A stretch of DNA of 35,552 nt from a virus (taxonomy: Duplodnaviria > Heunggongvirae > Uroviricota > Caudoviricetes), in IMG/VR virus record IMGVR_UViG_2645727510_000007. One strand, 5' to 3'. Under the pieces are notes generated by a model, which had not been told where the DNA came from, made no database searches, and was given only the letters and a program-made list of their open reading frames with translations. Shown one piece after another: positions 27,350 to 29,675 of the stretch (the stretch's first letter is position 1; each line of letters begins with the position of its first letter). A program made the translations under genes and the position numbers.

Positions 27350-27633
27350 TGGCTAACCTGCAACTTGCTGTTAAAAGTGAATACTTCGATGCCATGATTC
27401 GCGGAGAGAAAACGGAAGAGTATCGCCTTGTTAATGACTACTGGAAAAAGCGCCTCGTTAACCGCGAGTATGGCAGTCTGATCATCACGAAGGGGTATCC
27501 GAAGCGCGACGATTCCAGCCGCAGAATTGATGTTCCGTATGGCGGATATGAAATCAAGACAATCACACATCCGCACTTCGGCGATAAACCGGTAAAGGTA
27601 TACGCGATAAAGGTGAATATCGGCAATGAATAA
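27349..27633 (+). CDS. Hypothetical protein (possibly ASCH/PUA-like)
   Basis: ATG overlaps the TraR-like stop (TGATG); 94 aa; family guess is weak. Confidence 0.45.
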   Translation: MANLQLAVKSEYFDAMIRGEKTEEYRLVNDYWKKRLVNREYGSLIITKGYPKRDDSSRRIDVPYGGYEIKTITHPHFGDKPVKVYAIKVNIGNE

Positions 27634-27682
27634 CAATCCTCGCATTGGCGGGGATTTCTTTTATCTGAAAAGGACAGAATAC

Positions 27683-28426
27683 ATGATTAACAATATTGCA
27701 AATCAGTCTTCGTTTCCGGCTGCAACAATTGACAGCCAGATGCTGTTGAAAATGGTTAATGAGGCGCGGAGACTGTGAGGCGAAAAAGAAGTACGCAACA
27801 ACGACTTCATTGCACGCATCAAAGATGAGCTTGAGGGGGAGGGTTACGAAATTTTCGTAACCCCCATGGATAAGAAAAAAGGCGGAGCGGATCAGGTGGT
27901 TATAGTGATGACCTACAAGCAAGCCCTGCGCGTCGCCGCACGTGAGTCGAAAGCCGTCCGTCGTTCGCTGGTCGACAAACTTGAATCAATGCAACAGCAG
28001 TTGCAACAAAAAACGACCACGAAGAAATCACCGGATGGCCTTGAAGAATTCCGTAAGGCACGCGCATTGAAAATGACCGTCGACACAATGAAAGACCTCT
28101 TCGACTTCCTCCCTCACCTCGCACCGGAAGCTAAACAGGTCGTTGCCGCCAGCCTGATTAATCCCGTCGTCGGCTTTAGTGCAATCCCTCTTCCGGTCAT
28201 TGATGAACATCACTACTCTGCGTCGGAGGTTGGCACCATGCTTGGCATTTCAGCCAACAAGGTAGGGCGCATTGCCAACACCTACATGCTCAAAACAGAA
28301 AAGTACGGGAAGTGGTTCATCGACAAATCGGCGCACAGTGACAAGCAGGTCGAGACATTTCGCTACAACGAGGCGGGAGTGCACAAGATCGAGGAACTCA
28401 TCGAAGGAGAACGAAAGGCTGCATGA
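27683..28426 (+). pseudogene. Antirepressor-like gene split by an in-frame TGA at 27776..27778 (C-terminal 186-aa ORF 27866..28426 intact)
   Basis: ATG 27683 opens a frame encoding MINNIANQSSFPAATIDSQMLLKMVNEARRL, stop TGA, then the same frame continues GEKEVRNNDFIARIKDELEGEGYEIFVTPMDKKKGG... to 28426. Confidence 0.5.
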
Positions 28427-28505
28427 TTTTGACAAGATAGTTTTCCCCAAATCTGGGGGAAAAGACCGAATGGCGCGGCTTACAGCAAGATAAAGACCAC
28501 ATGAT

Positions 28506-28604
28506 TTGACAAATCCGCATTAACGGGGCTATATTCCGCTTCATGGTGCTGAACACACCTTGCAAAGCGGAAACCGCACCCGTCAGTCATGCGGCTTTTT
28601 TATG
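28506..28604 (+). ncRNA. Candidate small RNA or transcription attenuator: promoter, about 60-nt structured transcript, intrinsic terminator
   Basis: TTGACA (28506..28511), 18-nt spacer, TATATT (28530..28535); downstream alternative hairpins gcgg-aaa-ccgc (28567..28577) versus ccgca...tgcgg (28574..28594) followed by cttttttat. Confidence 0.35.
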
Positions 28605-28748
28605 TCCATTTCTCAGATATGGTCGGGTAGCGCGTATACCGAAAAACAACCGAAAGGTTAAGGATACGGGCCGACTTTGCACGGTGTTCAAGTACCTGAC
28701 CGCCCTGCTGAACACAGGGCTATCTGAACAAATGCAAAGGACATAAAA

Positions 28749-29372
28749 ATGACCAGTCAACTCATCCCCGTATTCAACGGCACTATCGCCAACGAAACAG
28801 CCCTACTCTGCAATGCCCGCGATCTGCATGCTTTTTTAGGCGTGAAAAAGGTGTTTGCGGCATGGATTACAAATCGCATTTCAGAATACGAATTCATTGA
28901 AAATCAAGACTATATTTTGCTTTCCAATTTGGGAAAGCAAACATCTGGTAGAGGCGGTCACAACCGCAAGGATTACCACCTCACCCTCGACACAGCCAAA
29001 GAGCTGGCAATGGTCGAGCGCAACGAAAAAGGCCGCCAGATACGCCGATACTTCATCGAGTGCGAAAAGAAACTTCGCAGCATGCAACCAGCGCAGCAAT
29101 TCACAGACGAGGAAATCATCCTCCTCTGCTACATGCAGGTACAGATGGAGAAAGCACAGGACATCAGCAAACGCCTGTATCCGATATTGAAGGAACTGAA
29201 CTCATCATACTCGAGCAAGCTGTATGACATCGCGTTTGAGACTTTCTACACGGTGACGAAAAACAGAGACGCACTGCTCAGGGAGGCGACACGACTTGAC
29301 CAGACAAGCGCCCTTTTCGAACGGGCAAGACCAATGCTGAAAAGCCTTCGGGCGAGACAATTCGAATTTTAA
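28749..29372 (+). CDS. AntA/AntB-type phage antirepressor
   Basis: 207-aa ORF with the AntA-like N-terminal motif (NARDLHAFLGVKKVFAAWITNRISEYEFIENQDYIL...GGHNRKDYHLTLDTAKELAMVERNEKGRQIRRYFIECEK). Confidence 0.8.
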   Translation: MTSQLIPVFNGTIANETALLCNARDLHAFLGVKKVFAAWITNRISEYEFIENQDYILLSNLGKQTSGRGGHNRKDYHLTLDTAKELAMVERNEKGRQIRRYFIECEKKLRSMQPAQQFTDEEIILLCYMQVQMEKAQDISKRLYPILKELNSSYSSKLYDIAFETFYTVTKNRDALLREATRLDQTSALFERARPMLKSLRARQFEF

Positions 29373-29377
29373 TCATC

Positions 29378-29403
29378 AAAGGAGCTTCGGCTCCTTTTTT
29401 GTT
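29378..29403 (+). terminator. Rho-independent terminator
   Basis: aaaggagc-ttcg-gctccttt hairpin followed by a T-run (ctcctttttt gttgg). Confidence 0.8.
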
Positions 29404-29456
29404 GGAGAAAATCAACCACTGCTCGCTCCCTTGCGAGTAATTGCGGAGACTTTGCG

Positions 29457-29675
29457 ATGTACTTGACACTTCAGGAGTGGAACGCACGCCAGCGACGCCC
29501 AAGAAGCCCTGAAACAGTTCGTCGATGGGTACGCGAGTGCAGGATATTCCCTCCTCCGGTTAAGGATGGAAGAGAGTATCTGTTCCACGAATCAGCGGTA
29601 AAGGTTGACTTAAATCGACCAGTAACAGGTAGCCTTTTGAAGAGGATCAGAAATGGGAAGAAGGCGAAGTCATGA
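29457..29675 (+). CDS. xis: Excisionase Xis
   Basis: 72-aa ORF MYLTLQEWNARQRRPRSPETVRRWVRECRIFPPPVKDGREYLFHESAVKVDLNRP... near-identical to lambda Xis; overlaps int as in lambda. Confidence 0.95.
   Translation: MYLTLQEWNARQRRPRSPETVRRWVRECRIFPPPVKDGREYLFHESAVKVDLNRPVTGSLLKRIRNGKKAKS

Follow-up and report, generated by a model that had tools for sequence, protein, structure and literature searches.

Introduction

P4 (CI RNA) and N15 (CB RNA) have processed immunity RNAs, each excised from the leader of its own target operon; complementary sites flank the RNA gene upstream and downstream (seqA and seqC in P4), N15 CB controls an antirepressor operon, and both RNAs act by premature termination of transcription and not by occlusion of a Shine-Dalgarno (SD) sequence. 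In this report we describe the interval 28427-28748 of a 35,552-nt stretch of phage DNA (IMG/VR record IMGVR_UViG_2645727510_000007; the whole stretch is called the window), which lies directly upstream of an antirepressor (ant) gene and contains an RNA of the sRNA-Xcc1 family, and we compare it with the closest described systems. In the immI region of P1, c4 RNA is cut from the operon leader and pairs by two segments around the icd-ant ribosome-binding site, so blocking translation of ant (PMC12197685); it is an RNase P substrate according to Hartmann et al. 1995, as cited in PMC4919922. The upstream a1 and b1 copies of P1 are modelled in Rfam as a separate family, c4-a1b1 (RF03163). A 2025 review of phage small RNAs (sRNAs) names sar, c4, IsrK and 24B_1 as antirepressor regulators, and not Xcc1 (PMC12197685). 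Full-text literature searches (sRNA-Xcc1, c4, antisense RNA, antirepressors) returned no description of the Xcc1 mechanism proposed below; subscription papers were largely outside their reach, and a prior description is possible.

We propose that the interval acts as a c4-type antisense RNA lock on the antirepressor gene, built on an Xcc1 scaffold, and we put the probability of this reading at about 0.72. The data show the elements themselves, the complementarity between two segments of the Xcc1 RNA and sequences on both of its sides, the co-variation of these segments with their flanks across phage loci, the overlap of one target with the SD sequence of ant, the conservation of promoter and terminator, and, for the homologous RNA of enterohaemorrhagic E. 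coli, abundance without translation.

An Xcc1-family RNA and its complementary sites lie upstream of the antirepressor gene

The RNA, its antisense segments, their downstream targets and the ant gene are as follows.

28621-28709, plus strand: sRNA-Xcc1 family RNA, 89 nt
28675-28681, plus strand: antisense segment a' (CUUUGCA), in the P3 loop
28684-28690, plus strand: antisense segment b' (GUGUUCA), 3' side of P3 and the junction strand between P3 and P1
28702-28705, plus strand: GCCC tail directly 3' of P1, tRNA-like R-C-C-N
28703-28719, plus strand: tail hairpin CCCUG/CAGGG, loop presenting b2 (-5.9 kcal/mol, z -2.5)
28709-28715, plus strand: target b2 (UGAACAC), loop of the tail hairpin
28725-28730, plus strand: target b2' (UGAACA), a second, single-stranded b copy, 2 nt 5' of a2
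28733-28739, plus strand: target a2 (UGCAAAG), overlapping the SD sequence of ant
28749-29372, plus strand: ant gene, 207 aa, AntA N-terminal domain and P22_AR_C

The RNA at 28621-28709 is a member of RF02221. It matches the family model over positions 1-87 of 87 with 69.3 bits (cut-off 53), at an E value of 9.7e-11 over the whole window and 1.6e-12 locally, and it ends 40 nt 5' of the ant start codon. Its fold is a three-way junction made up of a 9-bp closing stem P1 (28621-29 / 28693-28701), a long P2 arm, and P3 (28670-73 / 28682-85), the loop of which is 28674-81. The covariance-model alignment of the window copy contains P1, P2 and P3 with 4 non-standard pairs, and minimum-free-energy folding recovers P1 and P2. 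Among homologous loci the sequence of P1 varies and its pairing is kept. Directly 3' of P1, [AG]CC[ACT] was found in 81 of 90 loci; by its likeness to a tRNA 3' end, this R-C-C-N tail may be a recognition signal for RNase P.

Segments a' and b' are complementary to targets on both sides of the RNA. The targets stand in the order b then a, which is the order needed for antiparallel pairing with a' then b', and a2 overlaps the SD sequence AAGGA (28737-41), which stands 7 nt before the ant ATG. An initial annotation of the interval had pointed to a 10-bp direct repeat, gctgaacaca, at 28548-57 and 28707-16; the repeat is indeed present, and each copy forms a hairpin loop, closed by the short stem GGUG/CACC in the first case and CCCUG/CAGGG in the second, so that the same loop is carried on different stems. 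It belongs to a bipartite motif, TGAACA-N0-12-TGCAAAG, of which 3 copies were observed in the 35.5-kb window (0.04 expected), all in one 190-nt stretch and one of them inverted inside Xcc1. The Xcc1 match itself had been overlooked, as had a third CUGAACA copy at 28724-30 and the TGCAAAG repeat at 28561 and 28733. No icd-type open reading frame (ORF) was found in the 47 nt between the end of P1 and the ant ATG.

The antisense segments co-vary with their flanks across homologous phage loci

Viral contigs were searched with the conserved Xcc1 core, which yielded 120 loci with 91 distinct Xcc1 sequences; 16 of 17 sampled loci passed the RF02221 cut-off. We then performed an unbiased scan over 87 distinct loci, in which the reverse complement of each Xcc1 6-mer was sought in the flanks of its own locus and in those of the other loci. 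Exactly two Xcc1 positions stood out, and they did so in both flanks: the P3 loop (a'), with own-flank complementarity of 45-72% against 3-7% cross-locus, and the 3' junction (b'), with 52-69% against 12-19%. We also ran permutation tests over 88 distinct loci, and the observed mean was not reached in any of 5000 reassignments. For a', 75/88 loci have an upstream complement (z 17.9, 58 distinct strings) and 64/88 a downstream one (z 13.1, 51 distinct strings); for b', the upstream complement occurs in 72/88 (z 13.8, 30 distinct strings) and the downstream one in 75/88 (z 10.7, 30 distinct strings). At least 12 junction classes co-vary with flank motifs, and an exact complement was observed on both sides for the junctions UUUCGAA, UUUUGAG, UUCUUAA, UUCUGAA, UUACGAA, UUUUCAG and UUUCUAA. 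Downstream, the a target has its end at a median position of -9 relative to the start codon (usually ...AG/GA(G)) and so overlaps the SD sequence; the b target ends at about -20, and two downstream b copies occur in most homologous loci.

The same arrangement was observed upstream of several kinds of antirepressor. An antirepressor-type N-terminal domain is present in 60 of the 68 complete downstream ORFs (KilA-N 16, Bro-N 11, AntA 10, Rha 9, ORF6N 8 and P22_AR_N 6; P22_AR_C was also found in 19), and six N-domain families behind one RNA indicate that the RNA module is constant while the protein family is variable. Two published observations fit this pattern, namely an Xcc1 RNA noted upstream of an ORF6N protein in APSE phages, and the commonest Xanthomonas integron cassette, in which Xcc1 lies upstream of a symE toxin gene. 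The order of promoter, hairpin, AGCGG, hairpin with U-run, spacer, Xcc1, tail, SD sequence and ant recurs at Nil2 antB, at antB1 of P13374 (an O104:H4 phage) and at ant of Aaphi23 (an Aggregatibacter phage).

These data also bear on the view taken in the literature for Xanthomonas and Xylella, where Xcc1 is placed under HrpG/HrpX control with many predicted targets. On that view Xcc1 would be a trans-acting sRNA on host virulence or physiology genes, and its adjacency to ant would be incidental. We regard this as very unlikely here, because the exposed segments vary (30-58 variants) and track the adjacent flanks and not any fixed host sequence, and because the gene downstream is of antirepressor type in so large a share of the loci.

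Two further arrangements were seen among the homologous loci. In one locus (L093, 7026-7350) two tandem Xcc1 modules differ in specificity, and the first is followed by a terminator with no gene, and is thus an orphan antisense RNA. Five loci (L004, L008, L025, L026 and L111) form an integron-cassette-like class with the junction CAUCGGA, in which neither the promoter-leader module nor a flank complement to the junction is present. Small ORFs of 83-97 aa lie downstream in this class, and of the complements only that of the P3 loop is found, close to the start codon (8 nt in L008); L004 scores below the RF02221 cut-off.

A conserved promoter and leader precede the Xcc1 RNA

Upstream of Xcc1 the interval contains a promoter and a short leader, with a second set of targets.

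28506-28535, plus strand: sigma-70 promoter, TTGACA (28506-11), 18-nt spacer, TATATT (28530-35)
28545-28559, plus strand: leader hairpin GGUG/CACC, 7-nt loop presenting b1 (-2.7 kcal/mol)
28550-28556, plus strand: target b1 (UGAACAC), loop of the leader hairpin, complementary to Xcc1 b'
28561-28567, plus strand: target a1 (UGCAAAG), complement of a' in the Xcc1 P3 loop; next to it, on the 3' side, the conserved CGG of AGCGG
28567-28577, plus strand: competing hairpin GCGG-AAA-CCGC (GCGG 28567-70, CCGC 28574-77), restricted to this lineage, CCGC being common to the terminator stem
28574-28601, plus strand: weak terminator-like element, CCGCA (28574-78) / UGCGG (28590-94), 11-nt loop, U6 (28596-28601)

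The near-consensus promoter reported in the initial annotation is readily read in the sequence. It matches at 11/12 positions and is the sole promoter-like match in 27500-29500, and transcription is expected to start near 28542. Its position is conserved: a promoter matching at least 9/12 positions was located 10-15 nt 5' of the first (b1) hairpin in 72% of 60 distinct homologous regions, as compared to 5% of shuffles. The stem of this first hairpin varies among loci (GGUG, GAGG, AAGG, GUGG).

The hairpin and U-run which the same annotation placed between the promoter and the AntA-like gene are also present, with a conserved loop, CCCGUCAGUCA. On single-sequence folding the terminator hairpin gave -5.1 kcal/mol (z -1.2), and a terminator scan did not call it (28574-94), its loop being longer than 8 nt. 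Folding of the leader, proposed as a check in that annotation, gave no stability signal, the 72 nt folded alone being no better than shuffles (z +0.31). Single-sequence thermodynamics was thus uninformative for the leader, and comparison with homologues was needed. Alignment of 52 leaders with MAFFT, followed by RNAalifold, recovered the terminator stem with compensatory changes, with part of the counts broken by register shifts, and the stems were then searched for directly, with shuffles as the control. Of 53 leaders, 37 have a stem of at least 5 bp abutting a U-run, compared with 9% of shuffles, and 15 different stems keep the pairing, including CCGCA/UGCGG, CCAAC/GUUGG, UUCAC/GUGAA and AUCGCA/UGCGAU; CCG lies inside the terminator loop in 36 of the 37. 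Judged by this comparison, the leader hairpin with its U-run is a genuine conserved element, though thermodynamically weak. The initial annotation had made its proposal depend on conservation among relatives, and both promoter and terminator proved to be conserved across the homologous loci. An Rfam search of 28300-28900 at permissive E left the leader without a match and returned only chance-level eukaryotic matches. Between the U-run and Xcc1 there are 19 nt in the window and 18-76 nt in other loci; since no further promoter was detected and the gap is this short, Xcc1 and ant must be transcribed by read-through from the 28506-35 promoter or from the upstream operon.

The conserved parts of this leader open up the possibility that it is itself the regulator, as the initial annotation had suggested for a transcript of about 60 nt running from promoter to terminator. 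Either the 28542-28601 transcript would act on ant, or a classical attenuator (GCGG-AAA-CCGC versus CCGCA...UGCGG) would decide read-through into the gene. In its favour, the promoter is real and conserved, as is the hairpin with its U-run, both hairpins exist in the window with CCGC common to both, and binding of Xcc1 at a1, which abuts GCGG, could in principle tip the balance to the terminator. However, the leader is of the same sense as the targets in the ant 5' untranslated region (UTR) and not complementary to them, so that it cannot pair with the ant mRNA; it holds the target copies a1 and b1, and the antisense segments are in Xcc1, about 20 nt downstream. The two mutually exclusive hairpins are present in the window, but classical attenuator logic is not a conserved property of the homologues, in which the GCGG-N-CCGC pattern occurs in just 37/88 leaders and the alternative hairpin is missing in 51/88, with the terminator kept. 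Regulation by the leader alone would also leave out the 89-nt Xcc1 between terminator and gene, and we find it quite unlikely.

Some other features of the leader were noted. AGCGG (28566-28570) and the terminator-loop motif CCCGNNAG (28579-28586) are kept in most leaders even where the stem changes. The GCGG could pair with the loop CCGU as a pseudoknot, and three loci combine GCGU with a GCGU loop. As a cause of the AGCGG conservation we also considered that the a1 pairing might reach further, into the leader CGG and the 5' strand of P3; this works in the window and fails in loci of the L012 type, and was rejected. In the leader of L109, about eight tandem 8-nt units (ccaccaag) lie between the b1 hairpin and the leader terminator.

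Relatives of the RNA: a discrete species in Xanthomonas, abundant and untranslated in EDL933

In Xanthomonas, Xcc1 was detected as a discrete 88-nt RNA by Northern blot and rapid amplification of cDNA ends, with the mapped 5' end at the first base of P1 (PMC2996969). In E. coli O157:H7 EDL933, an enterohaemorrhagic E. coli, the sole Xcc1 lies directly upstream of a gene annotated as "phage antirepressor Ant", in the same layout and with another specificity class. A published study combining RNA-seq and ribosome profiling has a single sRNA-Xcc1 entry for EDL933, with 40,293 RNA-seq reads, a level similar to that of CsrB and RNase P RNA; its ribosome coverage value is 0.02 (PMC5331693). The homologue is abundant and is not translated. 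The paper uses older coordinates, and we matched its entry to the EDL933 Xcc1 by equal length and strand. When the published coordinate, 1392052, was taken in NZ_CP008957, it fell on a hok/sok locus and was discarded; the only nearby Xcc1 is at 1394619-1394707, upstream of Ant. The hok/sok type I toxin-antitoxin locus itself (sok, 113.5 bits; L124 4094-4268, EDL933 1391943-1392267) belongs to the same EDL933 prophage region and lies about 2.4 kb from the Xcc1-ant module.

These data are relevant to an alternative in which Xcc1 is simply a structure of the ant 5' UTR, its P3 loop and junction folding onto a2 and b2 and masking the ribosome-binding site, with neither a free RNA nor action in trans. 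Xcc1 always stands directly upstream of the gene to be controlled and on the same strand, which is in favour of such a fold, and data on complementarity cannot separate pairing in cis from pairing in trans. We nevertheless consider masking in cis alone unlikely: the RNA is discrete in Xanthomonas, its EDL933 homologue reaches the abundance given above, and the tRNA-like R-C-C tail suggests excision. Moreover, the upstream a1/b1 set of targets is hard to account for by masking in cis, and an Xcc1 with no downstream gene exists in L093.

Proposed mechanism of the antisense lock

Based on these observations we propose the following sequence of events for the c4-type lock. The promoter at 28506-35, which is probably constitutive, would start transcription near 28542, and many transcripts would end at the weak leader terminator (28574-28601), giving a leader of about 60 nt that carries b1 and a1. 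Transcripts that read through, or that arrive from the upstream early-left operon, would run through the 89-nt Xcc1 into ant. Xcc1 would then be excised, with RNase P as the probable enzyme, cutting at the base of P1 next to the R-C-C tail, and would accumulate as a stable structured RNA. Its a' segment in the P3 loop would pair with a2, and b' in the 3' junction with b2 or b2', in the 5' UTR of ant. Since the SD sequence is overlapped by a2, this pairing would block ribosome binding, and the antirepressor would not be made in the lysogen. The a1/b1 copies in the leader would serve as a decoy or feedback sensor that sets the amounts of Xcc1 and of the ant message. Of these steps, action in trans, processing by RNase P, translational repression as the outcome and the part played by the leader are inferred.

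Several points weigh against this interpretation. The pairings are short (7 + 6-7 bp), with a modest predicted energy of -15 kcal/mol at the UTR site, and whole-molecule RNAduplex does not clearly do better than shuffles (z of -1.9 with the UTR, and of -2.7 with the leader); this program gave long artefactual duplexes, and cofolding of the segments was judged to be more meaningful. The specificity class with junction AGUUGA (P13374, EDL933) has just ~4-5 bp of b pairing. The same complementarity would also suit a purely cis-acting fold of the long transcript, and the conserved AGCGG and loop CCCGNNAG of the leader are unaccounted for by a c4-type model. The C4 covariance model had no match on 28300-28900 at E <=10, while the same search finds C4 in Nil2 and L046; common descent with c4 is accordingly not demonstrated. 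Finally, at this locus the interpretation rests on sequence, with the expression data coming from relatives.

A wider reading is possible, though we hold it as doubtful. The Xcc1 module may be a portable three-part RNA lock (decoy leader, processed antisense RNA and SD-overlapping target) with dozens of orthogonal specificities, mobile among lambdoid and Shiga-toxin (Stx) phages, Pasteurellaceae phages, APSE, Xylella prophages and integron cassettes, and gating antirepressors as well as the SymE toxin. On this tentative reading the specificity classes in enterohaemorrhagic E. coli might form a network of RNA cross-immunity and cross-induction, and the leader might be an anti-antisense sponge that sets the threshold for release on induction.

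sRNA-Xcc1 is routinely annotated with a function guessed as "virulence-linked", and the concrete mechanism proposed here gives it a natural target in the gene directly downstream. Antirepressors help to decide between silence and induction of prophages, Shiga-toxin phages included, and the Ant of Phi24B promotes efficient induction (PMC3064807). An RNA lock on ant would thus bear on the induction of toxin phages and on cross-talk among co-resident prophages. The naturally orthogonal a'/b' specificities carried on one scaffold could in addition supply parts for synthetic translational repressors.

Setting of the interval in the prophage

The window covers the early-left end of a lambdoid prophage. 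Its genes are arranged in the order YqaJ-like exonuclease, small ORFs of the exo-xis region, antirepressor-like ORF, the interval, the AntA/P22_AR_C gene, terminator, xis, int and a host mdtA-like gene, and a TraR/DksA zinc-finger ORF is among the small exo-xis-region ORFs. The two features that border the unit are given below.

27866-28426: upstream antirepressor-like ORF (phrog_1726, E 1e-81)
29378-29397, plus strand: terminator-like hairpin closing the ant unit, before xis and int (8-bp stem, 4-nt loop, T-run)

The initial annotation had placed the interval between two antirepressor-like genes, and both neighbours agree with this. The downstream ant product matches Pfam AntA (1.6e-26) and P22_AR_C (1.9e-8) and, among PHROG profiles, phrog_377, anti-repressor Ant (3e-93). 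The upstream ORF aligns solely to positions 76-264 of the 264-position PHROG anti-repressor profile and had no match in Pfam. Its frame extends 5' to 27626 and is broken by an in-frame TGA at 27776-78, and it may be a nonsense-disrupted antirepressor gene. Just 3' of this ORF, at 28441-28463, there is a perfect hairpin, UUUUCCCC-AAAUCU-GGGGGAAAA, which the scan called as terminator-like on the minus strand.

One wrbA prophage record has the interval at 100% identity, and many Stx2a phages have it at 99.7%. Its make-up is mosaic, separate sub-segments recurring in separate phages; an 84-nt segment (28435-28518) shows ~93% conservation across hundreds of O157/O111 genomes, irrespective of the remaining interval. 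A 67-aa ORF that starts with ATG (28543-28746, plus strand) spans the whole region from leader to ant. It was considered as a gene and rejected, as the indels among homologues are not multiples of three; Pfam had no match for it, and a test for an open frame across Xcc1 did not discriminate, intervals so short being usually open. On these comparisons it is probably not a gene.

Comparison with known systems

The initial annotation had likened the interval to the small-RNA control of antirepressors in both P22 (sar) and P1 (c4). The first comparison does not hold, although sar too pairs at the ribosome-binding site of ant and represses its translation. The sar RNA comes from the opposite strand, its transcription running across the ant leader, whereas Xcc1 lies upstream on the same strand, and no minus-strand promoter was found in a scan of 27500-29500; as far as the sequence goes, the Xcc1 locus is not sar-like. 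The P4 CI and N15 CB systems described above were compared with the Xcc1 locus by description only.

A closer parallel to the leader is Gifsy-1 IsrK (RF01394), a promoter-proximal short RNA that is ended by a terminator and carries target-type hairpins, with read-through producing the long mRNA of a phage regulator. In Nil2 and L046 IsrK lies immediately upstream of the C4 RNA, in the same layout. The covariance models of IsrK and c4-a1b1 (RF03163) gave no match to the leader at E <=10. IsrK reportedly activates the translation of the long transcript; the leader described here would at most titrate a repressor.

With sRNA-Xcc1 itself the likeness is one of structure, the match being full-length and the three-way junction the same; RF02221 was first found in an integron cassette of Xanthomonas campestris. 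The window copy differs from the family in that the conserved AAUACAA core is absent from its P2. Published Xcc1 is described as a trans-acting, virulence-linked sRNA with no established mechanism, while here, and in 88 phage loci, it is part of a c4-like module before antirepressors.

The closest counterpart in function would be c4 of P1/P7 (RF01695, clan CL00128), and this half of the earlier comparison is apt. There are differences: the closing stem of Xcc1 has 9 bp and that of c4 17 bp; the Xcc1 family has a long, highly conserved AAUACAA...CCCGAAAGGGG arm which c4 does not have; no icd-like ORF separates Xcc1 from ant; of the targets here only b sits in a hairpin loop, a1 and a2 being single-stranded; and the hosts of the module are lambdoid and Stx phages and not P1-like plasmids.

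The two modules also occur side by side. In Nil2 (L001; 1494-1692 and 2546-2720) and in L046 (2349-2547 and 3058-3141) a c4 module (isrK/c4-a1b1 with C4) is immediately followed in tandem by an Xcc1 module, each of them preceding its own antirepressor-type gene. The two kinds of module have almost the same -10 region; in Nil2 it is cggggctatattcc in both, and part of the leader is common to them as well. The GenBank note on Nil2 describes the antA-antB interval as a "putative bacterial retrotransposon" insertion.

The likeness to c4 extends over the whole layout, with promoter, upstream targets, a structured RNA with two antisense segments, targets at the ribosome-binding site and an antirepressor gene following one another in order. 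Both RNAs carry two arms on a closing stem, together with a 3' junction that is single-stranded and used in pairing; AUG stands before the closing stem and CACC/RCC after it, and both RNAs exist in many specificity variants, as in the heteroimmunity of P1 and P7. By this analogy we propose that Xcc1, which stands outside the C4 family by covariance model, works like c4.

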